Source of the DNA: Gammaproteobacteria bacterium
Lineage (GTDB): Bacteria; Pseudomonadota; Gammaproteobacteria; Xanthomonadales; SZUA-36
Assembly (NCBI GenBank): GCA_030431095.1
Contig: JAUIJU010000002.1
Span: 22,092 to 86,091, forward strand
DNA length: 64,000 nucleotides
Direction of reading: 5' to 3'
Shown here: positions 882-35,522 of the stretch, piece by piece
Layout of the letters: every line of letters starts with the position of its first letter
Numbering within the stretch: position 1 is the stretch's first letter
Position numbers and translations under genes: made by a program
Notes under the pieces: model-generated
What the model was told of the DNA's origin: nothing
The model's input: only the letters and a program-made list of their open reading frames with translations
Database searches by the model: none

Positions 882-3800
882 ATGCATCATTCAGGCTCAT
901 CAATCACCGTGGGGAAGAACAGCAGGAAGTTATTGCCGCTCGCCATCAGCGCCGCCGTCCTCGTCATGGCGCTGGGGCACGGGCCGGCATTCGGGCAGGA
1001 AGAGGATGAAAACCTCCTCGAAGAGGTGGTCGTGACCGGCATCCGCCAGTACATCCAGGACGCGATCTCGATCAAGCGGGACTCGGTACTCGTCGTGGAC
1101 GGATTTTCCGCCCAGGACATCGGCGACTTGCCCGCCCTGTCCATCGGCGAAGCACTCGAATCCCTGACGGGGGTAGCTTCTCACCGGGAAAACGGCGGGG
1201 CGACCGAGGTGTCCATCCGCGGCCTGGGACCGTTCCTGAGCATGACCACCTTCAATGGCCGCGAAGCCTCCAATGGCAGCGGCGACCGGTCGGTCAACTT
1301 TTCCCAGTTTCCGTCTGAGTTGATGAACAAGATCGCCGTCTACAAAACGCAGGATGCGTCGATGATCGAGGGCGGCGTCGCGGGCGTCATCGCCCTTGAA
1401 ACCCTAAAACCCCTGGAATACGGCGATCGACGAATCCAGTTTGATGTGAAGGGCAACTACAACCCGGACCAGCAACACATCGATGCCCAGTTGTCCGACG
1501 ATATCGGCTATCGCGCGACACTCAGTTATGTCGACCAGTTCGAATTTTCCAACGGCGCGCAGCTCGGTGTGTCACTGGGTTACCAGAACAGCGACATATC
1601 GCAGCCCGAGCAGGAAGTCCGCAGTTCCAGTCCGACAGGAACGTCGCTCTACGCCTGCATCAACGATCCCGGAGTGACCAACGAAGGTTTCTTCCGCTCT
1701 TCGAGCGGCGATTGCGAGGACCAGGTCGACGGCAGTTCGAACCAGGGCTACAACACCACCATCAATCCGGATACGGGACTGGCCTACAGTGACGGACTGG
1801 CCTGGGGCTTCGCTCCGAGCTCCCGTGGCTACCGGCAGAACGACACCAACGACGATCGTGAGGCGTTCTTCGTCGCGCTGCAGTGGCAACCGAACGAGCG
1901 CTGGGACATCAACCTCGACGTCGAGCTGTCGGAACGTACCCAGTCCGAGCTTCGCCACGACCTCAACTTCGCCAACCAGAAGCGCGCAACCGACGGTGTG
2001 ACAGGGCCGAACCTGGTCACGTTGCCAAGCGGCGCGATCACGAGCTGGTTGGGCGAGACCGCGATCGAATCCAACAGCGAACGTTACGCCCGTACGGAGG
2101 ACTACCAGGGGGGCGGGCTCGGTGTGAGCTTCCAGGCGACCGACCGCCTCACCTTGTCCGGCGACCTGGCTTTTTCGGAAACGACCCGCATCGAGAAGCA
2201 GGTTTCCGTGCGCATCCAGTCCGACGACCAGGACATCTACGGTGAAGATACGCCTGGTGGATACCGTCCGCTGGTCGCTTGGAACCTCGGCTCCGGCATC
2301 CCGCAATACACGATCACCGACTTCGATGTCACGGATCCGACCCTGTTCTCGGACGAATACCGGGTGCGGATCGACTCTGATGTCGACCGCAAGAACACGA
2401 TTCACTCGGCGCGCGGTGACTTCTTTCTGGAGACTGAATGGGGCGCCATCAACGGCCTCGAGGGCGGTCTGCGTATCTCGGAACTCGAATACCTGAATCT
2501 CGGCGGCACCCGCTTCGACCCGGGCACGATCGACGACAGTTCCGAGGAGGAGCGTGCCGCCATCGTCGCCATGAATGAGGCCTGCCGGATGGCATTTCCC
2601 GAATCAGGCTTCCTGTCCGCCGAGGCGAGCGGTGACCCCATTACCGTGATCGATGGCAGCACCGGCCAGTCCGGCAGCGGCACCGGCAACAGTTGGGCGG
2701 TGTTCGACAACGAGTGCATCACCAATGCAATCCTTGATTACCACGGCATCGCATTCATGTATCCGGAGCAGACACTGGAGAGTTCAGCCACGACGGACGT
2801 GACCGAAACCACCATCGCCGGCTACCTCATGGCCAACTTCCAGACGGAGTGGGGTGGTCGTAACGTCACCGGCAACTTCGGCGTGCGCGTCGTCAATACC
2901 GAGGTGGAAGCAAACGCCTGGCGCGCGGCCTACCAAATCGTCGAAGACGACAGTGGGTTTCTCTCGATCGAGGAAACCGGCGACCTGGAAAAGGTGCAGG
3001 CCAGGCATGACTACACGGAAGTGCTGCCGAGCTTCAACATGGTCATGGACCTGACCGACGAAGTGTTGCTGCGTGGTGCGGTCTACCGTGGCATGTCACG
3101 CGCCGACCCCGGGGACCTGGGCTACAACCGCTCGTTCAATGTGAACACGGCGGATGACATCACCGACCCGAATGACCTGATCAGCAGTGTATCTGGATCG
3201 GGTAACCCGGCCACCGATCCCCTCATGTCCTGGAATGCGGATGCGTCCATCGAGTGGTATCCCAACGACGACACGATCCTGTCGTTCGGCGTGTACTACA
3301 AGGATTTCACCGGTGGTTTCGAGCAGATTCGGTCCTTTGAAACCTTCGTCGTCGACGGCGAGAACATCACCTCGCCCGTGACCGTGACGCAGACGGATTC
3401 CGGCACGAACACGCTGTACGGCGTCGAGGTCACAGCCGCGCACAACTTCTCCTACCTGGACAGCGCCTTTTGGCGGGGTTTCGGCGTGAAGCTGGGTCTG
3501 AACGTGGGTGATTCGGACTTCGAATTCGAGGACAGCCTGTATGGCGACGTCACCATCCGCGACACTGACGGCACGGTGGTGCCGCTCACCATCGGTATCG
3601 TGGAGCCGGGCAACGTTCCCGGGTTCTCCAACACGGTGTTCTCGGGCAATCTGTACTATGACATCGGTGGCTTCGGCGCCAGCCTAATCTACAAGTACCG
3701 GAGCGAATACTTTCAGCCTTACACCAGCAACGGCACGCGACTGCGCTACGTGGGAGACGTCGGCGTCTGGGAAGCCAGAGTGTCCTACCAGTTCACGGAC

Positions 3801-3935
3801 AACCTGCGCCTGTCGCTGGAAGGCATCAACCTGTTCAATGAACCGAAAAAGCAGTACTTCTTCACGACGGACAACCTTGGGGAAGTGAACATTTATGGCC
3901 CGCGCTACTTCCTGGGCCTGCGAGGCAAGTTCTGA
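882..3935 (+). CDS. TonB-dependent receptor (putative alginate-oligosaccharide uptake)
   Basis: 1017 aa; signal peptide, TonB box LEEVVVTG, plug motifs (SIRGLG, VYKTQ...EGG), C-terminal F; heads the lyase operon. Confidence 0.93.
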   Translation: MHHSGSSITVGKNSRKLLPLAISAAVLVMALGHGPAFGQEEDENLLEEVVVTGIRQYIQDAISIKRDSVLVVDGFSAQDIGDLPALSIGEALESLTGVASHRENGGATEVSIRGLGPFLSMTTFNGREASNGSGDRSVNFSQFPSELMNKIAVYKTQDASMIEGGVAGVIALETLKPLEYGDRRIQFDVKGNYNPDQQHIDAQLSDDIGYRATLSYVDQFEFSNGAQLGVSLGYQNSDISQPEQEVRSSSPTGTSLYACINDPGVTNEGFFRSSSGDCEDQVDGSSNQGYNTTINPDTGLAYSDGLAWGFAPSSRGYRQNDTNDDREAFFVALQWQPNERWDINLDVELSERTQSELRHDLNFANQKRATDGVTGPNLVTLPSGAITSWLGETAIESNSERYARTEDYQGGGLGVSFQATDRLTLSGDLAFSETTRIEKQVSVRIQSDDQDIYGEDTPGGYRPLVAWNLGSGIPQYTITDFDVTDPTLFSDEYRVRIDSDVDRKNTIHSARGDFFLETEWGAINGLEGGLRISELEYLNLGGTRFDPGTIDDSSEEERAAIVAMNEACRMAFPESGFLSAEASGDPITVIDGSTGQSGSGTGNSWAVFDNECITNAILDYHGIAFMYPEQTLESSATTDVTETTIAGYLMANFQTEWGGRNVTGNFGVRVVNTEVEANAWRAAYQIVEDDSGFLSIEETGDLEKVQARHDYTEVLPSFNMVMDLTDEVLLRGAVYRGMSRADPGDLGYNRSFNVNTADDITDPNDLISSVSGSGNPATDPLMSWNADASIEWYPNDDTILSFGVYYKDFTGGFEQIRSFETFVVDGENITSPVTVTQTDSGTNTLYGVEVTAAHNFSYLDSAFWRGFGVKLGLNVGDSDFEFEDSLYGDVTIRDTDGTVVPLTIGIVEPGNVPGFSNTVFSGNLYYDIGGFGASLIYKYRSEYFQPYTSNGTRLRYVGDVGVWEARVSYQFTDNLRLSLEGINLFNEPKKQYFFTTDNLGEVNIYGPRYFLGLRGKF

Positions 3936-3961
3936 CGGACTGACAGGGGGCTGGGAACCGT

Positions 3962-3990
3962 CCGGCGGACCGGTCAGCGACCGTCCGCCG
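3962..3990 (+). other. GC-rich stem-loop after the TBDR stop
   Basis: CCGGCGGAC-CGGTC agc GACCG-TCCGCCGG inverted repeat, no U-tract. Confidence 0.45.
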
Positions 3991-4135
3991 GGATTTCCGC
4001 CCCGAACACCCGAACCGAGACGTGAATCCCCTCCTTTCACCGCCACCCCGGGCGTTCGGCGCCAGGATCGTTGTGCCAGGAGGCGCGTCGGGCACACTTG
4101 ACCCCGACCTGCAATTTGAACCGGAATCACCAGGC

Positions 4136-25454: not shown

Positions 25455-26231
25455 ATGCGCCGCACCATCCGTGAAGCCGTGTTCGATCTGCTCCTGGCGC
25501 TGCCCGGGACGGAGGAAGCGCGCTCTCACGGGGCGCCCACCTTCAAGGTCGGTGGCAAGACATTCGCTTACTGGACCCAGAATCATCATGGGGACGAACG
25601 CGTGTCGCTGTGGCTGGGCACCTCTTCCGAGACGCAGGCGCAGCTGGTCGCCCTCGATCCCGAAACCTATTTCATCCCGCCCTACGTGGGCGTCAAGGGG
25701 TGGACCGGAATGGACCTGGGGATGGCGCGTTCCTGGGACGACGTCCGGCAGCGGGTGCTGGACGCCTGGACACATTGCGCGCCCCCCAGGTTCAATAGGC
25801 ACACCCCTGGTCTACCCGACATCGACCCACCCACCGACACCTTGCGGCCCGAGGACATCAACCCGATGCTCGGCGAGCACGCGCAGGCGATTTTGAAAGG
25901 ACTTGCCGCGTACTGTCTCCGCCTGCCGGAAACGCAGGCCGAAGATGCGCATGCCAGCGCCACGTGGCGGGCGGGCAAGAAGCCGTTCGTGCGGGGGCGC
26001 CACGACGAGGGTCGCCTGAAGCTGCAGTTCCTGGTCGGCCCGGAACAGCAGGCCCTGATGCTCGACGACCCTCGCTGCGCCCTGCCCCCTTACTACGGCA
26101 ACGCGGGCTGGATCGAGCTGGACGTGCAGGATGCCGTGCACTGGCCGGAAATCGAGTCCCTGCTGGAAACCGGGTATCGCCGGGTGGCGCTCAAGCGCAT
26201 GCTCAGGGCGCTGGACGGGCAAGTGCGGTAA
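25455..26231 (+). CDS. Tandem MmcQ/YjbR-family DNA-binding protein
   Basis: Two repeats: LPGTEE..HGAPTFKVGGKTFA..PPYVGVKGW and LPETQ..WRAGKKPF..PPYYGNAGWI. Confidence 0.8.
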   Translation: MRRTIREAVFDLLLALPGTEEARSHGAPTFKVGGKTFAYWTQNHHGDERVSLWLGTSSETQAQLVALDPETYFIPPYVGVKGWTGMDLGMARSWDDVRQRVLDAWTHCAPPRFNRHTPGLPDIDPPTDTLRPEDINPMLGEHAQAILKGLAAYCLRLPETQAEDAHASATWRAGKKPFVRGRHDEGRLKLQFLVGPEQQALMLDDPRCALPPYYGNAGWIELDVQDAVHWPEIESLLETGYRRVALKRMLRALDGQVR

Positions 26232-27189
26232 AGCGCCGTTCCTCCCAGGCCAGGAACGCGGCGCCCAGCATCGCCCAGACCAACTGCACCGCCAGGTAGA
26301 CGAAGCCGGCCGCCACCAGGTCCTCGGCGGGAATGCCATAACGCGCCAGCAACAGGATTGAAACCCCTTCGCGCACCCCCGCGCCACCGAAGCTCGTCGG
26401 CAAGGCAGCTACGGCAGTAATCAGGGGAAAGGTCCACAGCAGGTCCCGCCAGGGTACGTCGGCCGCGGTGATGGACCACAGCGCCACGGCCATGGCCAGG
26501 CTCATCAGCAACTGGCTGCCCAGCCCCAGCAGGCTGCCGGCTATGACACTGCCGGGTCGCCGCACAGCGCCGCGAAACGTCGAGCGCAGCGAACGCGCCA
26601 TATTCTGCATGAACGGCAAGTGTCGCAGACGGTACGTGACGCCCACGCTGACCAGCGCCAGGGCCAGCGCCAGCAGACTCCAGCCGCCCAGGGAGAGGTC
26701 CGGCATCAAGGCCCCCGGGGAAATTGGGGTGTCGCTGACCAGCACCAGTGCGACGGTCAGGGCAATGAACAGCACGGAGGCCAGTGCCGCCATGCTGCGG
26801 TCCATGATGGACGAGGCCAGCAACTGGTGCAAAGGCTGGTCATACCAGCGCGAATAGGCCGCGGACTTGGCCACGTCCCCGCCGGCGGGGCCCAGCAAAA
26901 TCATGTTGAAACAGTGTCCGCCGAACATGGCGCGGGCCACCACCGGAAGTGACAAGGGCACGTCCGCCAGGCGCAGTCCGATGCGCCAGCGCAGCCCGGT
27001 CGCGACGATGGCGCAACCGAACATCGTCACGGTCAACATGAATGCACGCCCGTCGACCGCCGCCAGCGAATGCGCCAGGCTGCCCAGGTCCAGCCGCGAC
27101 AGGATGATGGCCAGCAATCCGCCGGAGACCAGCAGGCTGACCAGCACCTTGCGATGAAAGCCCCGGGATGTCTTCCGGCTCGGGTTCAT
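26203..27189 (-). CDS. Lysylphosphatidylglycerol-synthase TM / YbhN (UPF0104) flippase-like membrane protein
   Basis: LRW, FN..LGPAGGDVAK, DR, P.SFGGAGVRE motifs; multi-TM. Confidence 0.82.
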   Translation of the reverse strand: MNPSRKTSRGFHRKVLVSLLVSGGLLAIILSRLDLGSLAHSLAAVDGRAFMLTVTMFGCAIVATGLRWRIGLRLADVPLSLPVVARAMFGGHCFNMILLGPAGGDVAKSAAYSRWYDQPLHQLLASSIMDRSMAALASVLFIALTVALVLVSDTPISPGALMPDLSLGGWSLLALALALVSVGVTYRLRHLPFMQNMARSLRSTFRGAVRRPGSVIAGSLLGLGSQLLMSLAMAVALWSITAADVPWRDLLWTFPLITAVAALPTSFGGAGVREGVSILLLARYGIPAEDLVAAGFVYLAVQLVWAMLGAAFLAWEERRFTALARPAP

Positions 27190-27227
27190 AAAAGTTTCAC
27201 AGGTTCGCGATTCGTCACGGATCAGTC

Positions 27228-28046
27228 ATGAAACAGTGCAAACATGAAAGCCTGAAGTCAGCAGAAGAAGATTTCGTGCAGGAGAACGAAACATGCACGC
27301 GCCCCCATTGGACCCGCTCACAGCTCTGGAAGCAACCGCTTCCCGGGATGCGCCGGCAATGGCTGTCGCAGTGCTTCACGCGCGGCGCCCTGCTGCTGCG
27401 GCGGAGGCGGGTACTGACCATCGAAGGCGCCGAACACGTGCTGGGCGGGCGCGACCCGTTTATTTTCGTGGCCAACCACAGCCAGCGCACCGAGGCGCTG
27501 GTCGTCCCCTGCCTGCTGGCCTTTCTGCGCGGCGGCAAGCGGGTGCACTTTCTGGCCGACTGGAACTTTGCACTGATTCCACCGGTGGGGCTGATGTACT
27601 GGTGCGGCGGCACCATCCTGCTGACGCGAAAGTCCGCCCGGCCACGCTTCCTGAACCTGTTCAAGCCGCTGTTCATGCGCCAGGCAACCGGTTTCGAGCG
27701 GGCTCGCGAGCGCCTCGCCCAGGGCGCGAGCATCGGCCTGTATCCCGAGGGAACGGTCAATCGGCGACCCGGTCGCCTGTTGCGTGGGTACCCGGGGGCG
27801 GCGCGCCTTTCACTGGAGACCGGGGTGCCGGTGGTGGCGGCGGGGATCAGCTATCCCGGCCACGAGGGCCCGGCACCGGTACCCGAGAGCGCCGCCATGC
27901 AATTGACGATAGGACCGGCGCTGTGCCCCGGGCCGCCAAGCGCTAGGCCTTCCGTGCACGACGTGCGCGAATGGCACGCACGCATCATGAGCAGGATTGC
28001 CGAATTGAGCGGCCAGTCCTGGACCCCTGAATCGACACGCCGTTGA
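27228..28046 (+). CDS. PlsC-like lysophospholipid acyltransferase with HX4E motif
   Basis: FIFVANHSQRTE, YPEGTVN, GAARLSLETGVPVV; start uncertain. Confidence 0.8.
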   Translation: MKQCKHESLKSAEEDFVQENETCTRPHWTRSQLWKQPLPGMRRQWLSQCFTRGALLLRRRRVLTIEGAEHVLGGRDPFIFVANHSQRTEALVVPCLLAFLRGGKRVHFLADWNFALIPPVGLMYWCGGTILLTRKSARPRFLNLFKPLFMRQATGFERARERLAQGASIGLYPEGTVNRRPGRLLRGYPGAARLSLETGVPVVAAGISYPGHEGPAPVPESAAMQLTIGPALCPGPPSARPSVHDVREWHARIMSRIAELSGQSWTPESTRR

Positions 28047-28055
28047 GGAGGCAGG

Positions 28056-28706
28056 ATGAGCCACGAACTGACCGTCAAGAGAGTGGAAACCACGCAGGAC
28101 CGCCACGATGCCATCGAGGTGCTCAAGGCCACCTACCTGGACGAAAAACGCTGGGTCGACAACGAGAACCAGATGTTTCCCGAGGAAGACCTGTCGCGCG
28201 AGGTGATTTCCTGGTTCACCTGTTACCGCGGCCGGCGGCCGGTGGGGGTGGTCCGCGTGCTGTACGAGCCGCCGATCGAACTGTACGAGGAGTACGGCTT
28301 TTCCCAGATCGATACCGACATCGACGTCGAGGCATTCGTCAAGCACCACCGCATCGCGGAAATCGGCCGTTTCGCCGTGATCCCCGAATACCGGCGTTTC
28401 GTGGTGTTCGCCGCTTCGCTGATGCGCGCGGCCAGCGAGGAAACCGTCCGCCTTGGTTTTTCGCACTACGTCACCGACGTGTTCGAGGGTGAGCAACACA
28501 GCCCCTACGACTTTCACACACGCGTCATGGGCTTCATCCCCGTCGCCACGCACGAAGTGGGCGAACTGAACTGCGCCAACCGGCGCATCACGCTGATTCT
28601 TGACCTGCGCCAGGCTTACTACCGCCTGAAGAAGTCGAAGAACAAGATCTACCGCATGCTGACCGAAGGCTGGACCGAGGACATGCACCAGCGACTGGCT
28701 TCCTGA
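28056..28706 (+). CDS. GNAT-fold N-acyltransferase (FeeM/LuxI/OlsB-like fold)
   Basis: PVGVVRV, IAEIGRFAV, MGF motifs typical of acyl-ACP-using GNATs; GAGG RBS; 9 bp after the acyltransferase. Confidence 0.7.
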   Translation: MSHELTVKRVETTQDRHDAIEVLKATYLDEKRWVDNENQMFPEEDLSREVISWFTCYRGRRPVGVVRVLYEPPIELYEEYGFSQIDTDIDVEAFVKHHRIAEIGRFAVIPEYRRFVVFAASLMRAASEETVRLGFSHYVTDVFEGEQHSPYDFHTRVMGFIPVATHEVGELNCANRRITLILDLRQAYYRLKKSKNKIYRMLTEGWTEDMHQRLAS

Positions 28707-28724
28707 ATCGGAACGCGCCTGTCC

Positions 28725-30158
28725 TCACAGTATGGGCGAGAGCAACCGGCAAAAATTCACCGCCAGCTGCCAGCCCAGCCCCTTGCTCTTCAGGGCCTCC
28801 GGGTCCAAAACCTTGCAGTGGTCGATGGTGTTTTCGAACATGGTTTCCATCTTTTCGGCAAAGGCCTCGTCCAGCAGCACCGCGGTGAGCTCAAAGTTCA
28901 GGCGAAACGAGCGGTTGTCGAAATTGGCCGTACCGATCGAGCTGACGTGATCGTCCACCAGCAGGGTTTTCTCGTGCAGGAAACCGGGGCTGTAAGCGTA
29001 AAAGCGGATGCCCAGCCCGGACAGGGCCATGATGTAGTGGTAGGCGGCAAAGTACACCAGCAGACTGTCATTGGTGCCGGTGGTGACGATGCGCACGTCC
29101 ACGCCACGCAGTGCCGCCAGCTTCAGGGCCTTCATGACCGCTTCGTCGGGGACGAAGTATGGGGCGGAAATCCAGGCGCGTTTCCGGGCCAGGTTCAGCG
29201 CCGCCACGAAAAACAGCGACGCCGTTTCGTGCACGTGGGTCGGCGCAAACGGCACCACCATGCCCGGAATGCCCCCGTTGGAGGCGGCACGGGGCGTCCA
29301 GTTCAGCGTGGGCAGTTCGCGTGCGGCCCAGTACCAGTCCGAAAAGAACACCAGCTGCAGCTGGGTGACCATGGGGCCTTCCAGGCGCACGTGCGTGTCG
29401 CGCCAGGGGGTCAGCTTGGGATTATGTCCCAGGTACTCGTCACCCACATTGTGGCCGCCCACCCAGCCGACCCGGCCGTCCACCACCACGATCTTGCGAT
29501 GGTTGCGAAAGTTCTGTTGAAAGCGATTGCGGCGGCCCTGGTCCGGTTTGAAGGAGCGGGCCTTCGCGCCGGCGCTTTCCAGTTCGCTGCAGTAGCGCCT
29601 GGGCAGCCCCAGGCTGCCGATGTCGTCATACAGCACGCGCACGTCCACACCCGCTCTGGCCCGCTCGAGCAGGGCCTCCTGCAGCCTCCGACCCAGCTTG
29701 TCGTCGCGGATGGTGTAGAACTGCACCAGGACGTAGTCACGGGCCTCGCCAATCCCCGCCAGAATGCTCTCGAAAGTCGCTTCCCCGTTGATCAGCAACT
29801 CCGCGAAGTTGCCGGCGACCACGTCCAGACCAGACAGGGCGCCGATGGCACGGCGCGCGTCACCCAGCCCGGACGGGGGCGCACGCTGCGCGTCCAGCGC
29901 TTCGGTGACTTCCGCGTACAGGCGATCGATGTCCTCGGCATTCTCCTGGTAGGCCTCGACCATGCCCTGGAAACGGTTTCGCCCCAAAACCAGGTACAGC
30001 GGCACGGAAAGAAAGGGAAACGATGCCAGGGCCAGTGACCAGGCAATGGCGCCTGTGGGCGTGCGGGCCTTCATGATCGCCTCGATGGCAAAGACCACGC
30101 CGAGCAGGTAGATGACGGCGGCAAAAAAAATCCACAGGGTCGCAACCATGGCGTTCAT
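28725..30158 (-). CDS. cls: Cardiolipin synthase (PLD family, ClsA-type architecture)
   Basis: Two HKD motifs (HRKIVVVD, HEKTLLVD), N-terminal TM domain, PYFVP. Confidence 0.92.
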   Translation of the reverse strand: MNAMVATLWIFFAAVIYLLGVVFAIEAIMKARTPTGAIAWSLALASFPFLSVPLYLVLGRNRFQGMVEAYQENAEDIDRLYAEVTEALDAQRAPPSGLGDARRAIGALSGLDVVAGNFAELLINGEATFESILAGIGEARDYVLVQFYTIRDDKLGRRLQEALLERARAGVDVRVLYDDIGSLGLPRRYCSELESAGAKARSFKPDQGRRNRFQQNFRNHRKIVVVDGRVGWVGGHNVGDEYLGHNPKLTPWRDTHVRLEGPMVTQLQLVFFSDWYWAARELPTLNWTPRAASNGGIPGMVVPFAPTHVHETASLFFVAALNLARKRAWISAPYFVPDEAVMKALKLAALRGVDVRIVTTGTNDSLLVYFAAYHYIMALSGLGIRFYAYSPGFLHEKTLLVDDHVSSIGTANFDNRSFRLNFELTAVLLDEAFAEKMETMFENTIDHCKVLDPEALKSKGLGWQLAVNFCRLLSPIL

Positions 30159-30270
30159 CCTGGCCAGGAACGGCGTGGCGAAGCAGCGCCCATCCTAGCC
30201 CAAGACCCGTCTCCGCCAAAGGTCCCCGTGGCCGGTCACGTTCCGGCAATGCAATTGGGATTAGAATACC

Positions 30271-31098
30271 GTGGTGGCGCATTCACCTCCCAAGCACGAC
30301 ACGCCCCGGCATTTGCGGCTGTTGACCTTCAACATCCAGTCCGGCACCCCGGCCAACAGTTACCGTGAATACCTCACCAACAGCTGGCGACAGGTGCTGC
30401 CCAGCGCGGTGCGCATCGAAAACCTGGACGCCATTGCGGGCCTGGTCATGGACTACGATATGGTTGGCTTACAGGAAGTGGATTCGGGCAGTCTGCGTTC
30501 CGGATTCATCAACCAGTCGCGCTATATCGCCACTCACGCGGCCCTGCCCTACTGGTTTCACCAGTCCAACCGCAAGGTGGGAACGATGGCCTACTCCGGC
30601 AACGGCTTCCTCGCCCGTTACCAGCCCGACGCCATCGAGGAACACCGCCTGCCCGGCGCGATTCCCGGCCGCGGGGCGCTGTTTCTGAATTTTGGCGGAG
30701 CGTCCGGCCTGACCATCGCCGTCGTGCACCTGGCGCTGGGCCAGCTGGCCCGGGGCGCGCAACTGAAATACCTGTGCAGGAAACTGCAGGGGCGGCGCCA
30801 CGTGGTGGTGATGGGAGATTTCAATGCTGGCGCGGACAGCACCAAGCTACGCAATTTCTGTGAGCGGCTGGACCTGGACGCGCCAACGCGCGATCTGCCC
30901 AGTTATCCTTCGTGGAAGCCACAACGCGCGCTGGATCACGTGCTGGTCAGCCGCACCCTGGTCACGGGGTCAGCTGAGGTCATCGACGTGGGGTATTCGG
31001 ACCACCTGCCGGTGGGGCTGAAAATCGAGGTGCCCGAAGGGCTGCAACTGAAGAGTGCGGAACCGCCCCTGGCAGGATTCGAGGCCGTGCGCGGCTAA
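30271..31098 (+). CDS. Endonuclease/exonuclease/phosphatase family protein
   Basis: TFNI, LQEVD, GDFN, LDH, SDHLP motifs. Confidence 0.9.
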   Translation: MVAHSPPKHDTPRHLRLLTFNIQSGTPANSYREYLTNSWRQVLPSAVRIENLDAIAGLVMDYDMVGLQEVDSGSLRSGFINQSRYIATHAALPYWFHQSNRKVGTMAYSGNGFLARYQPDAIEEHRLPGAIPGRGALFLNFGGASGLTIAVVHLALGQLARGAQLKYLCRKLQGRRHVVVMGDFNAGADSTKLRNFCERLDLDAPTRDLPSYPSWKPQRALDHVLVSRTLVTGSAEVIDVGYSDHLPVGLKIEVPEGLQLKSAEPPLAGFEAVRG

Positions 31099-31111
31099 TT
31101 CCGCCCGGGCG

Positions 31112-31321
31112 TCAGTAGAGAAAGAAGTTGAGGCCGGTCAGGGCCGCGTAGCCCAATCCGAGGATCCCGCCCACGTACAGCAGACCACGCAGGAAGGAGT
31201 GCCATTGCTCGGAACGGTACTCGGCCTGGATGTCGCGGTGCAGTTTCATCCACTGCACCTCGAGGTCGCCGTTAAAGACGAAATTGCCGTTGTCATCGTA
31301 CTGGATGGGATCGTTACGCAT
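31112..31321 (-). CDS. Small hypothetical protein with C-terminal TM helix
   Basis: 69 aa ORF, host-like codon usage, co-oriented with the upstream lipoprotein. Confidence 0.55.
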   Translation of the reverse strand: MRNDPIQYDDNGNFVFNGDLEVQWMKLHRDIQAEYRSEQWHSFLRGLLYVGGILGLGYAALTGLNFFLY

Positions 31322-31360
31322 GGGAACCTGTCCGCCCGCACCGTGTGCGAAGCGTTGTTG

Positions 31361-31831
31361 TCAGCTGCAGTTGGTCTTGACGGTGTCACCGCTCACGTCG
31401 GAATAGCATCGCAGCGTGCTCTCACTCGGCGAATGGGTCACTTCCCAGTAGAGCTGTCCGTTGGGTGCGACGCGTTTGAGCGGGGGCTTCACGCCATTGT
31501 TCGCCGTTTGCGTTCCGAGCGTCCCAGGAAAGCCTTCAGGGTAGGTGAAGAGAAACTGCTGGTCTCGCTGCTGGGTATCGCAGACATTGATGGTGGAGAC
31601 CCGCGCCTGGGCGCCGCTGTCCCACTCGACCATGATCGGCTTGGTGCCCATGCAGCCGCCTTCCTGGAAATCAGCCGAGCCGGTGTAGGCCAGGGTGACC
31701 GGGGCATGGCCCCAGAACTTGCCGCCTTCGTAAATGGCGGCGCCCGGCGGTTCAGATTCGATGGTCAGCAGGACCTGCGAAGAACAGGCGCTGAGCAGGC
31801 AGGCAGCAAGTACGGCGATTCCCCTTTTCAT
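31361..31831 (-). CDS. Lipoprotein with PEGA-like domain
   Basis: Lipobox LSAC; TIESEPPGAAIY..G.AP PEGA-like motif; 4 further Cys. Confidence 0.72.
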   Translation of the reverse strand: MKRGIAVLAACLLSACSSQVLLTIESEPPGAAIYEGGKFWGHAPVTLAYTGSADFQEGGCMGTKPIMVEWDSGAQARVSTINVCDTQQRDQQFLFTYPEGFPGTLGTQTANNGVKPPLKRVAPNGQLYWEVTHSPSESTLRCYSDVSGDTVKTNCS

Positions 31832-32007
31832 CCCGGTTCCTTCCCTCTAATTTCTGGTTGCATCATGCGCCTTTACACGCATCGCTTCAAATGTATGAAA
31901 TACCCCGCCAACCACTTCATTGCAGGGTGAAGGGCGACCTAATTGAACATACGCGAAAGCCGCCCAAACCATCTCACCGAAACAGGCGCGATCGGGATAA
32001 ATAGGTT

Positions 32008-32289
32008 TCACCCTCTTGAACCGGTGATTTCACGGCGCGACAATGCGCCCGGTGACGCTGCCGGGGTCGCTGCAGTCGTTGCCACCGAAACGCGGGAGTG
32101 CGCACTCCCGCGTTTCTTTTTTCTTCGGGTCGTCAGCGCCAGGCCGGCGACCAGGGCAAGCCCAAATCCAACGGCGCCGCCGATCCACAACGCCACCCCA
32201 CCGATATAGGCGAACCACAGTCCCGGCACCACTGCGTAAAGGGCGTAGTGGGCCAGGAACTGCACCAGGTTGTCGACTCGCTTGTGCAT
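32008..32289 (-). CDS. Small hydrophobic membrane protein with basic RRKKKR segment
   Basis: GGAGA RBS before ATG; two TM-like segments; 3' part antisense to the sRNA. Confidence 0.55.
   Translation of the reverse strand: MHKRVDNLVQFLAHYALYAVVPGLWFAYIGGVALWIGGAVGFGLALVAGLALTTRRKKKRGSAHSRVSVATTAATPAASPGALSRREITGSRG
32016..32044 (+). promoter_or_regulatory. Sigma70-like promoter of putative sRNA
   Basis: TTGAAC-17 bp-GACAAT. Confidence 0.6.
32051..32122 (+). ncRNA. Putative ~72-nt two-hairpin sRNA
   Basis: Promoter upstream; hairpin 1 GGTGACG-CTGC/loop CGGGGTCGCT/GCAG-T-CGTTGCC; hairpin 2 perfect AAACGCGGGAGTGCGCACTCCCGCGTTT followed by a T-tract; no plausible + strand CDS ends here. Confidence 0.7.
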
Positions 32290-33281: not shown

Positions 33282-35465
33282 TCAGTCTCCCAGTGGCGTT
33301 CCCCGGGCCGCCATGACCCGGCGCAGCCCCGTTTCGACCTCGTCCTGGCGCGCGATCGCGGCGCGTTCCAGGACCCTGGAAATGCTCGGTGAGGCTTCGC
33401 CGCCGTGCACCCGCTCCACCGGCTGGTCCAGCCAGTCGAGACAGCGTCTCTGGACTTCGTCCGCCAGCCAGCCGCCGTAGGAGGTGCCCAGGGCGCCTTG
33501 CTCCACGATCAGTACGTTGTGGGTTTTACGCACGCTGGCCTCGACCGTTTCCCAGTCCAGGCCGGCTCGGTCGAGCGAGCGCAGGTCGATGACCTCGGCA
33601 TCTACGCCCAGCGCGTCCGCGGCGGCCACGCTTTCGCCCACCATCGAGAGATAGGTGAGCACAGTCAAGTCGTTGCCGGGACGCGCCACCCGGGCGCTGC
33701 CCAGAGGAATGTAATAGTCGAGATCGTCTTCGGGAATATCGCCGCGCTCGGCGTACAGGTCGACGTGCTCGAGCACCAGTACCGGGTCGCGGCATTCCAG
33801 CGCCGCGTTCATCAGCCCCACGTAGTCGAACGGCGTGGCCGGCGCCACGATGCGCCAGCCCGGGGACGTGGCGAAGATGCCGGCAGGGTCCATGGAGTGC
33901 TGCGATCCGTAACCGGTGCCCATGGCGACCTTGGTGCGCAGCACCAGCGGCACATCGGTGTCGCCGCCGAACATGTGGCGAAACTTGGCCACCTGGTTAA
34001 AGACCTGGTCCGCGGCCACCCACAGGAAGTCCGGGTACATGAACTCCACCACGGGCTTGTGCCGGCCGTCCGTGGCCAGGCCGCCGGCCAGGCCGATAAA
34101 GGCATTCTCGCTGATCGGCGTGCCCAGCACGCGATCGGGAAAGTCCTCCGCCAGGCCACGGGTGGCGCCGTTGGTGCCGCCCTTCAGGCGATGAATGTCC
34201 TCGCCCATGCAGACGATGGACTCATCCTGCGACATGCGCCGGTGCATGACGGAAGCCACCGCCTGGACGAAGCGGACCGATTTCATCGGGCCGTCGAAAC
34301 CGTCCTGCTCGGCGGTGCGCACCCCGGCCAGCTCCTGCAGGTCGCCACGAACGCCTACGTCCACGAAGGCGCGGTCGGGCCAGAGCTCCGGGCGGATGCG
34401 CCGCCCCTGCCCTTCAGGCTCCACGATGCGCTCGACGCAGCGCGCCATCAGATCCTGTGCCCGGCCGCGCAGCGCATCGAGATCGGCCTCGGTCAGCAAC
34501 TGGCGCTGCACCATGGCCATGCCCACGCGCGTCAGCGGGTCGCGCTGGCGCCAGTCTGCTTCTTCTTCCTTGCTGCGGTAACCGAATGCACTGCCCGCCA
34601 GCGGTCCGTTCTGGTGAAAGTAGCGATAGCAATCGGCCTCGATGATGGCCGGACCACCACCGGTGCGCAGGGTGTCCAGCGCGGCGTCGGTGGCCAGCTT
34701 GACGGCCAGTGGGTCCATGCCGTCCACGCGCCAGGCGGGGATGCCGAAGCCCTGTCCGCGGCCGGACAAACGGTGCTCGCGGGTCACCTCTTCGACGTGG
34801 GTGGCCACCGCGTACAGGTTGTTCTCGATAAAGAACAGCAGGGGCAGGTCCCATGCCGCGGCCAGGTTCATGGTTTCCAGCACCGAACCGATATTGACCG
34901 CGCCGTCACCGAAATAGGTGACCGCCACGTCGCCCGCGCCCGCGCGTCGGTGGGCGAAGGCCGCGCCGGCTGCCGAGGGCACGCCGCCGCCCACGATGGC
35001 ATTGCTGCCCAGCACACCAGCCTCGGCCCAGCGCAGGTGCATGGAGCCGCCACGGCCCTTGCAGAAGCCGTCCCGGAGACCGGCGATTTCCGCCAACGTG
35101 CGGTACAGCAGATGCTCCACGGGCTCGCCGAATCCGGCCAGTGGATCGAACTTGGGCTGCACGTGGTACAGGGCCTTGGCCAGGAACTGGTGGTGGGCGC
35201 GGTGCGAACCGTTCACCTGGTCACTGGACCGCAAGGCGATGCACGAGCCGATGGCCCCACCTTCCTGTCCGATGGAGGAATGCGCGGGGCCGTGGACCAG
35301 GCCTTCACCGGCCAGTTCCAGCACGGATTCCTCGAAGGCGCGCACCAGGTGCAGTCCGGTGAGCAGATTGCCCAGCAGATCGGCCGGCGCCTCCGCCCAG
35401 TCACTTTCCGTGGCGGCGAGGTCGAACCAGTCCGCGCCGGGCTGGAGGGGTGTCAATTCAGGCAT
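33282..35465 (-). CDS. Fused 2-oxoacid dehydrogenase E1 alpha/beta subunit
   Basis: HSSIGQEG, GRGGSMH, GDGA..N ThDP motif, TPISE, SQHS, IDLRSL; ATG 35465 with GGAG RBS. Confidence 0.9.
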   Translation of the reverse strand: MPELTPLQPGADWFDLAATESDWAEAPADLLGNLLTGLHLVRAFEESVLELAGEGLVHGPAHSSIGQEGGAIGSCIALRSSDQVNGSHRAHHQFLAKALYHVQPKFDPLAGFGEPVEHLLYRTLAEIAGLRDGFCKGRGGSMHLRWAEAGVLGSNAIVGGGVPSAAGAAFAHRRAGAGDVAVTYFGDGAVNIGSVLETMNLAAAWDLPLLFFIENNLYAVATHVEEVTREHRLSGRGQGFGIPAWRVDGMDPLAVKLATDAALDTLRTGGGPAIIEADCYRYFHQNGPLAGSAFGYRSKEEEADWRQRDPLTRVGMAMVQRQLLTEADLDALRGRAQDLMARCVERIVEPEGQGRRIRPELWPDRAFVDVGVRGDLQELAGVRTAEQDGFDGPMKSVRFVQAVASVMHRRMSQDESIVCMGEDIHRLKGGTNGATRGLAEDFPDRVLGTPISENAFIGLAGGLATDGRHKPVVEFMYPDFLWVAADQVFNQVAKFRHMFGGDTDVPLVLRTKVAMGTGYGSQHSMDPAGIFATSPGWRIVAPATPFDYVGLMNAALECRDPVLVLEHVDLYAERGDIPEDDLDYYIPLGSARVARPGNDLTVLTYLSMVGESVAAADALGVDAEVIDLRSLDRAGLDWETVEASVRKTHNVLIVEQGALGTSYGGWLADEVQRRCLDWLDQPVERVHGGEASPSISRVLERAAIARQDEVETGLRRVMAARGTPLGD

Positions 35466-35522
35466 GGTTGTCTCCGACACGACCGGGCCGGCGCCACGGC
35501 GCCGGCCCGGAACGCAACACGG

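Follow-up and report, generated by a model that had tools for sequence, protein, structure and literature searches.

A conserved pair of PlsC-type and FeeM-like acyltransferase genes as a candidate two-step route to amino-acid lipids

Two-step synthesis of aminolipids is established for the OlsB/OlsA, OlsF, GlsB/GlsA and OlsH/OlsI enzymes. In the known scheme, an N-acyltransferase produces a lyso-lipid onto which a lysophospholipid acyltransferase (LPLAT) then esterifies a second chain (PMC12971839, section 6; PMC11631085, section 4). In the OlsB/OlsA (ornithine), GluB/OlsA (glutamine) and GlsB/GlsA (glycine lipid) systems, the genes for an N-acyltransferase and a PlsC-like enzyme stand side by side and together yield an acyloxyacyl amino-acid lipid. 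In OlsF, a bifunctional ornithine/lysine lipid synthase of Serratia proteamaculans and Flavobacterium johnsoniae (PMC12971839, sections 6-7), the LPLAT-type O-acyltransferase comes first and a GNAT-type N-acyltransferase second (section 6 of the same source), and the aminolipid N-acyltransferases have a domain in common, PF13444 (PMC11631085, section 4). Here we describe a pair of genes, hereafter the cassette, in a 64,000-nucleotide stretch (the window) of a gammaproteobacterial genome of the order Xanthomonadales (assembly GCA_030431095.1, contig JAUIJU010000002.1, positions 22,092 to 86,091). The first gene (27228-28046, plus strand) encodes a 272-aa PlsC-type O-acyltransferase of the LPLAT family and the second (28056-28706, plus strand) a 216-aa FeeM-like GNAT, predicted to be an N-acyltransferase; the stop of the former and the start of the latter are 9 bp apart (28047-28055). 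By analogy with OlsB/OlsA and OlsF, we consider it probable, at roughly 60%, that this conserved pair of an H-x4-E PlsC-type enzyme and a FeeM-like GNAT makes a two-tailed (acyloxyacyl) N-acyl amino-acid lipid.

Pairing, fusion and distribution of the cassette

We compared the cassette across 80 loci, the best of 205 confirmed matches from species genomes, which according to their record labels comprise 58 Verrucomicrobiota, 12 Acidobacteriota, 7 Pseudomonadota and 3 labelled Bacteroidota; at least 3.3 kb of upstream flank was available in 65 of them and at least 1.5 kb of downstream flank in 72. In 79 of these 80 loci the GNAT gene directly follows a co-oriented PlsC-like gene, and clustering of the surrounding open reading frames (ORFs) revealed no further neighbour family in more than 12/80. 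The two genes also occur naturally fused, in seven representatives of 436-509 aa plus P0123, which are single proteins with PF01553 in the N-terminal half and the GNAT in the C-terminal half; the named copies come from Acidobacteriota and Thermoanaerobaculia metagenome-assembled genomes (MAGs). Such near-universal adjacency, together with repeated fusion, shows that both enzymes belong to one pathway, and so upholds a first-pass annotation of the window, made from its letters alone, that had read the PlsC-like and GNAT genes as a two-step acyltransferase unit.

The GNAT family is compact. It numbers 748 matches in a database clustered at 90% and only 204 representatives at E ≤ 1e-3 among 1.84 billion, is 55-64% identical across phyla, and shows 63 invariant columns in an alignment of 16 sequences. 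All source annotations of its members are generic names, and no paper on the PlsC-GNAT family was found in the literature searched, which leaves most subscription journals outside its coverage and so falls short of proving absence. Around the cassette, the neighbours specific to Acidobacteriota (an upstream secreted protein, a downstream protein of 104-144 aa and DUF218) offered no functional lead. A group of Limisphaerales loci (L006, L013, L014, L016, L020, L022, L029, L030, L041 and L044) carries Polysacc_synt (MOP-type flippase-like) and FkbM methyltransferase genes downstream, on the cassette strand, with a gene for an endonuclease/exonuclease/phosphatase (EEP) protein before the cassette in eight loci and, in most of these, a MacB-type ABC exporter gene in divergent orientation; these surroundings may constitute a larger, lineage-specific cluster.

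Closer to the window the distribution is patchy, as the GNAT is present in 2 of 9 same-genus genomes, in 0/15 from the family's other genera and in 0/16 of the order. We built a maximum-likelihood tree by a quick search, with a midpoint root used for drawing only. In this tree the copies of the window and of its two closest relatives (L001 and L002) form a clade (100) that sits within the Verrucomicrobiota side of a supported split (96); the Chromatiaceae and Steroidobacteraceae copies fall on the Acidobacteriota side, and the Pseudomonadota require at least three changes. The carriers include one organism in culture, Lamprocystis purpurea DSM 4197 (locus L068). Taken together, the patchy distribution and this quick tree make horizontal acquisition the simplest reading, and the tree suggests a Verrucomicrobiota-like origin for the cassette of the window. 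A copy from a MAG titled Chitinophaga pinensis (L034) groups tightly with that of an uncultured Verrucomicrobiota (L040), and one from a MAG titled Akkermansia muciniphila (L042) groups just as tightly with another such copy (L048); the bin label may be wrong, at least for L034, whose title names another phylum.

Family relationships of the two acyltransferases

As for the first enzyme, the profile match (57.8 bits on PF01553, cut-off 23), the predicted fold, the His motif and the PEGT motif all place it in the LPLAT family, and it scores well below the equivalog TIGR00530 (38 bits vs 103). When its AlphaFold2 model (pLDDT 86.7) was searched with Foldseek, all 21 matches at E ≤ 1e-3 were LPLATs, the best being Thermotoga maritima PlsC (5kym, 3.1e-9), followed by PatA, glycerol-3-phosphate acyltransferases and LpxM (5kn7, 7.4e-5). 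In place of H-x4-D, the enzyme exhibits an N-H84-x4-E89 motif, accompanied by (Y/F)PEGT, both conserved in the family, and NH-x4-E is invariant in all 74 of the 74 family members. The start given as 27228 is probably correct, since residues P37 and P39, invariant as well, come before the following Met.

For LpxM, a lipid A secondary acyltransferase that forms acyloxyacyl bonds, the motif is reported to take the H-x4-E form (PMC6286764). The cassette enzyme thus resembles LpxL and LpxM in this motif and in its LPLAT fold, and the reaction proposed for it resembles their formation of acyloxyacyl esters (same source). However, it belongs to another Pfam family (PF01553), its fold is nearer to PlsC, and the pair shows no linkage to lipid A genes.

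The GNAT is closest to FeeM, which the first-pass annotation had named for comparison. Profile matches among 16 family members are to FeeM (PF21926) in 16/16, with a best E of 3.5e-9, to Acetyltransf_5 in 13 and to Acetyltransf_1 in 10; the generic Acetyltransf_1 cut-off (21.2 bits vs 20.7) is the sole one that the window copy passes. With the AlphaFold2 model of the GNAT (also pLDDT 86.7), FeeM (2g0b) was the top Foldseek match at 6e-9, with TM scores of 0.63-0.77 and the longest structural alignment, 177 residues. The likeness holds for best Pfam family, top structural match and alignment length alike, and an ACP-dependent (acyl-carrier-protein-dependent) mechanism would be expected. The differences are that identity between FeeM and the cassette GNAT is only 13-14%, that the window copy lies below the FeeM cut-off in Pfam, and that pairing or fusion with an O-acyltransferase is not known for FeeM-type enzymes (PMC11631085, section 4).

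The same annotation had doubted that the GNAT is a canonical OlsB, and rightly so. On PF13444 it scores 21.6 bits, against a cut-off of 22.4, and 22.6 bits in a six-frame genome search, whereas the 30 best matches in a class sample of 121 genomes score 77-128 bits and include frames that resemble OlsB (about 250-350 aa) or OlsF (578-662 aa). Aligned by hhalign with 13 OlsB-like proteins, the GNAT family gave an E of 1.9e-4 over 178 columns at 47% probability, with a segment common to both, E-x-G-R...P-x-Y-R, in register. Nor does the GNAT look like a LuxI-type acyl-homoserine lactone (AHL) synthase, the other relative that had been considered, since there is no PF00765 match at E ≤ 0.01 and BjaI appears only at Foldseek rank 49. 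The strand-4 segment, AEIGRFAV-PEYR, is not followed by a Q/R-x-x-G-x-G/A loop in any of the 16 members (16/16), and this loop is likewise absent from the 10 OlsB-like proteins in which this segment could be placed. It is the pyrophosphate-binding motif of GNATs that depend on coenzyme A (CoA), and its absence here is compatible with an acyl-carrier-protein donor, without proving one.

Set beside the described two-gene systems, the cassette has its O-acyltransferase gene upstream, while the sampled olsBA loci run olsB then olsA, so that the order is reversed. The motif differs too, as the OlsA-like partners at canonical olsBA loci have NH-x4-D in 10/10 and the invariant form in the cassette is NH-x4-E. 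The likeness to OlsF is of another kind: the O-acyltransferase precedes the N-acyltransferase in both, the cassette family also has a fused form, and the same two steps are predicted. However, OlsF-like frames in the class sample (578-662 aa) score 44-91 bits on PF13444, and the shorter cassette fusions 17-23 bits where they match at all; on FeeM, seven of eight fusions score 26-45 bits, and one is without any GNAT-family Pfam match. The version in the window is, moreover, split in two genes and its O-acyltransferase has H-x4-E. Since the C-terminal domain of the fused relatives is FeeM-like and not PF13444-like, the architecture of OlsF matches and the family does not, a comparison made with the published description and with OlsF-like frames. 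Judged by its PF13444 score, its gene order and the lack of an H-x4-D motif, the cassette appears to lie outside the OlsB/OlsF family, and its nearest relatives are FeeM-type N-acyl amino acid synthases.

A predicted two-tailed lipid and its alternatives

Given the OlsF domain order and the existence of both split and fused forms, the cassette may operate like OlsF or GlsB/GlsA. In a first step, the GNAT would attach a fatty acyl group, probably a 3-hydroxyacyl group from an acyl-carrier protein, to an amino acid or a similar amine through an amide linkage, which would give a one-tailed lyso-lipid; in a second, the PlsC-like enzyme would esterify another acyl chain onto it. A protein encoded divergently from the pair in the window, a YbhN-like membrane protein, is a likely accessory, which in those lineages that have it would translocate the product over the inner membrane.

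The head group would probably be other than ornithine. When we searched 35 carrier genomes, picked from the 80 for their longer contigs, with PF13444, 28 also held a canonical gene of at least 78 bits; three of the others show only the weak match of the cassette itself, and four none. It is from this majority that we infer a different head group, and the co-occurrence suggests that the cassette usually adds to an OlsB- or OlsF-type enzyme rather than replacing it, with a different head group or regulation. No canonical PF13444 copy was found in the genome of the window, which is 87% complete, nor in that of L002. One carrier (L079, contig C24 of genome G154) has a canonical OlsB-like gene, at 108.9 bits on PF13444, on the contig of the cassette itself, some 4-5 kb away.

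Several observations weigh against a two-tailed amino-acid lipid. In one locus, L051, the sole exception to the pairing, the GNAT truly has no adjoining PlsC-like gene. Clustering of neighbours in the 80 loci shows neither an acyl-carrier-protein gene nor an amino-acid-supply gene conserved beside the pair, and no RNA run is listed among the public runs that contain the stretch. The GNAT of the window falls under the Pfam cut-offs for FeeM (21.8 bits vs 27) and Acetyltransf_5 (21.6 vs 22.4), and searching the PDB with a profile built from the aligned family retrieved no FeeM or other GNAT even at E ≤ 10, the single match (E 2.7) being a chance one. The hhalign link to OlsB-type enzymes has, as given above, only 47% probability. 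Products of FeeM-type enzymes are N-acyl amino acids often without the 3-hydroxyl needed for a second acylation, and their further acylation has not been reported (PMC11631085, section 4). Lastly, the co-occurrence with a canonical OlsB could also reflect redundancy under different regulation.

Some of these points would suit a secreted or signalling N-acyl amino acid, that is, a FeeM-type biosurfactant or signal that the PlsC-like enzyme tailors, for instance by acylating a hydroxyl of the head group. FeeM is after all the nearest family of the GNAT, FeeM-type enzymes are known to yield N-acyl amino acids with one chain (PMC11631085, section 4), and the accessory genes vary by lineage, with the MOP-type flippase, FkbM methyltransferase and MacB-type ABC exporter of Limisphaerales resembling a tailoring-and-export cluster. 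However, no conserved sensor or regulator gene lies nearby in the 80 loci, and both the LPLAT fusion in OlsF domain order and the H-x4-E motif, of the type used for acyloxyacyl bonds (PMC6286764), suit a two-tailed lipid better, which makes this outcome unlikely in our view.

Slightly less likely still is that the pair remodels an existing envelope lipid, for example by N-acylating phosphatidylethanolamine or a lyso-lipid and then re-acylating it, or by decorating lipid A. This would accord with a PlsC-like fold closest to the lysophosphatidate acyltransferase PlsC, with the presence of H-x4-E in lipid A acyltransferases as well (PMC6286764), and with the position of the cassette, in the genus of the window, among the phospholipid genes cls (for a cardiolipin synthase, Cls), YbhN-like and EEP. 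These phospholipid neighbours are nevertheless genus-specific, with Cls linked to the cassette in 0/80 loci; in other phyla the pair has no conserved companion among lipid A or phospholipid genes, and the nearest family of the GNAT works on free amino acids. A role of the GNAT as an ordinary acetyltransferase dependent on acetyl-CoA, or as a LuxI-type AHL synthase, with a linkage to the PlsC-like gene that has no pathway meaning, is highly implausible in view of the 79/80 synteny, the repeated fusion with an acyltransferase, the CoA-binding glycine loop absent from 16/16 members, and the lack of both a PF00765 match and a LuxR-type gene conserved nearby.

Returning to the two-tailed amino-acid lipid, the pair is best read as a variant form of the two-step aminolipid synthases, in which a FeeM-like enzyme is locked to, and at times fused with, a PlsC-type O-acyltransferase. 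More tentatively, the cassette could represent a fourth, FeeM-derived route to two-tailed amino-acid lipids, with split and fused synthases independent of OlsB/OlsF and OlsH/OlsI, an undescribed lipid class with a non-ornithine (possibly aromatic or unusual) head group, and a YbhN-type flippase of its own with which it moves between phyla; were this so, an orphan family of YbhN-type membrane proteins would gain its first substrate. Verrucomicrobiota and Acidobacteriota are abundant in soil and fresh water, and their lipidomes are poorly known. The product of the cassette could explain part of the unassigned polar lipids in environmental lipidomics.

The YbhN-like gene and a variable slot in the genus

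The YbhN-like gene (26203-27189, minus strand) diverges from the cassette across a 38-bp intergenic region (27190-27227) and is the only PF03706 (LPG_synthase_TM) gene in the genome of the window. Its product scores 89.9 bits (cut-off 33.4) over profile positions 1-296 of 302 and thus contains an MprF-type domain. In MprF, the PF03706 domain translocates lysyl-phosphatidylglycerol, an amino-acid-bearing lipid. While it shares this Pfam family with the flippase domain of MprF, the YbhN-like protein stands alone without a synthase domain (20 bits on the bifunctional MprF model, cut-off 600), and its function as a flippase is a prediction.

Searches with tblastn, phmmer and jackhmmer located a YbhN-like gene near the cassette in 8 of the 80 loci, directly divergent in five and about 2.2 kb away in three. 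The protein of the window matches the cassette-linked copies tested from other phyla at 105-145 bits and 33-37% identity, the three Limisphaerales copies 2.2 kb from the pair at 50-59 bits, and the best same-order proteins outside its genus at 32-39 bits; homologues in 100 same-order genomes amount to one close relative, in the same genus, and two weak ones. A metagenome scan with an alignment of the subfamily yielded 16 loci, 11 of them informative and five uninformative. Six of the 11 carry the cassette divergently (four complete, two cut by the contig end) and five, with enough flank, are without it; the gene contexts of the relatives without the cassette show no lipid theme. The subfamily loci and the similarity across phyla establish that the triplet of YbhN-like, PlsC-like and GNAT genes is real in a sub-clade, where the YbhN-like gene probably travels together with the cassette. 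A partnership with a flippase-like gene, as first proposed, therefore holds for some lineages (6/11 loci of its own subfamily) but not generally (8/80 cassette loci), most carriers being without the triplet. The YbhN-like protein is probably a lineage-restricted accessory partner of the cassette, with a putative role as flippase, and through this link a widespread family of membrane proteins without an assigned function may gain a candidate substrate.

On its other side, the cassette is followed in the window by cls (28725-30158, minus strand) and the EEP gene (30271-31098, plus strand; Exo_endo_phos PF03372, 75.2 bits). The Cls protein is of the ClsA type: it has an N-terminal membrane part, PLDc_2 and PLDc each match two stretches, and it scores 369.3 bits on TIGR04265 (cut-off 290) as opposed to 192.6 bits on the ClsB model (cut-off 281). 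A second ClsA-type paralogue, 51% identical, is encoded elsewhere in the same genome (contig C50, locus L084, 1468-2913, plus strand), and the genome of L002 has a single ClsA-type gene, located away from the cassette. The absence of Cls beside the cassette in all 80 loci was seen with tblastn, phmmer and jackhmmer alike. The alignment of window positions 28712-30315 to just 95 bp in L002 further reveals cls as an indel relative to the closest relatives. As for EEP, for which a sequence search gave no PDB match, its gene lies beside the cassette in 10/80 loci, in two lineages and two positions, and seven of nine genomes of the genus have an orthologue (67-85% identity), some with the cassette and some without.

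Within the genus of the window, the slot flanked by yjbR and the EEP gene has four states. It is empty in G162 and G163; in G159, cls is followed after about 12 bp by a YbhN-like gene, with no cassette; in the window, the cassette lies in opposite orientation between cls and the YbhN-like gene; and G164, the genome that contains L002, lacks cls and has the YbhN-like gene plus cassette directly next to the EEP gene. On a short contig of G160 (L001), the cassette is likewise directly beside the EEP gene without cls. These data are explained equally well by a cassette inserted into a cls-ybhN pair and by one lost from a window-like state. Between yjbR and the YbhN-like gene, L002 also has some 2.9 kb of additional DNA with a sulfatase gene (2699-4105, plus strand) that is absent from the window, a further sign of the variability of the slot. 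Four states in one genus provide a clean natural comparison for lipidomics.

These observations bear on whether all five genes, YbhN-like, PlsC-like, GNAT, Cls and EEP, act as one system in which Cls transfers a head group onto the new lipid. The five are adjacent in the window, three of their families are those of the ybhP-clsB-ybhN operon of Escherichia coli, and EEP recurs beside the cassette in a second lineage, in the eight Limisphaerales loci. We nonetheless regard a five-gene system as very improbable. Cls is missing not only from the 80 cassette loci but also from the 16 YbhN-like subfamily loci (0/16), the cassette directly adjoins EEP in the two nearest relatives, G159 has cls and the YbhN-like gene without the cassette, and EEP orthologues occur in cassette-less genomes of the genus; moreover, the five genes are on alternating strands and so form at least four transcription units. 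We have therefore rejected Cls as a pathway member, on its 0/80 linkage and its indel in the nearest relatives, and the idea of the first-pass annotation that this phospholipase D-type protein takes part is abandoned, as is any dedicated role for EEP. EEP is a resident gene of the genus, and EEP and Cls are neighbours in a variable slot, outside the pathway.

The comparison with E. coli ybhP-clsB-ybhN, made at the same time, stands for the families and fails in the detail. EEP, a phospholipase D-type Cls and a PF03706 protein are found together in both, and the spacing of about 12 bp from cls to the YbhN-like gene in G159 is as in clsB-ybhN. The genes of the window are, however, on alternating strands rather than co-oriented, with the cassette separating cls from the YbhN-like gene; the Cls is ClsA-type and 30% identical to E. 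coli ClsB, BLASTP gives no significant match between the YbhN-like protein and E. coli YbhN (E 0.49), and the EEP protein is a distant homologue of YbhP, with 23% identity over 254 aa (E 2e-6).

All five genes have the positions, families and spacings originally assigned to them, as ORF coordinates and profile scores agree. Their arrangement is no assembly artefact or chimera, since mismatch-free Logan contigs from two public runs (X1 and X2) bridge every gene junction, covering 26857-27345, 27513-29227 and 29587-31255 with zero differences to the window; X1 and X2 may be the source sample, or a single data set filed twice. Contigs from a third run, X3, bridge both cassette junctions. A consensus scan of the 38-bp intergenic region (27190-27227) gave zero sigma-70-like promoters, and a scan with a Pho-box consensus gave two matches with three mismatches each where 3.3 are expected by chance, so that control by phosphate starvation is unsupported; one of the two is at 27244-27261.

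Beyond the EEP gene, a lipoprotein of 156 aa is encoded on the minus strand (31361-31831), with a signal peptide, a lipobox cysteine and a weak PEGA domain (23.3 bits). A plus-strand ORF of 291 aa (31055-31930) was considered as a downstream operon gene and rejected as a shadow ORF lying over it. The lipoprotein is 74-78% identical in L001 and L002, as opposed to merely 45-47% for the plus-strand ORF over the same DNA, and the better conservation of its frame indicates that the minus-strand gene is the real one. At the other end, a 258-aa protein (25455-26231, plus strand) has a YjbR domain in two stretches and looks like a tandem YjbR protein. Farther downstream, a single 732-aa ORF (33282-35480, minus strand) joins the alpha (E1_dh) and beta (Transket_pyr, Transketolase_C) parts of a 2-oxoacid dehydrogenase E1. 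Finally, a strong terminator-like hairpin, with 13 pairs and then a T run, is found at 32087-32116, and the stretch that holds it (32035-32116) is 82-86% identical in L001 and L002, compared to about 74% for the flanking coding DNA.

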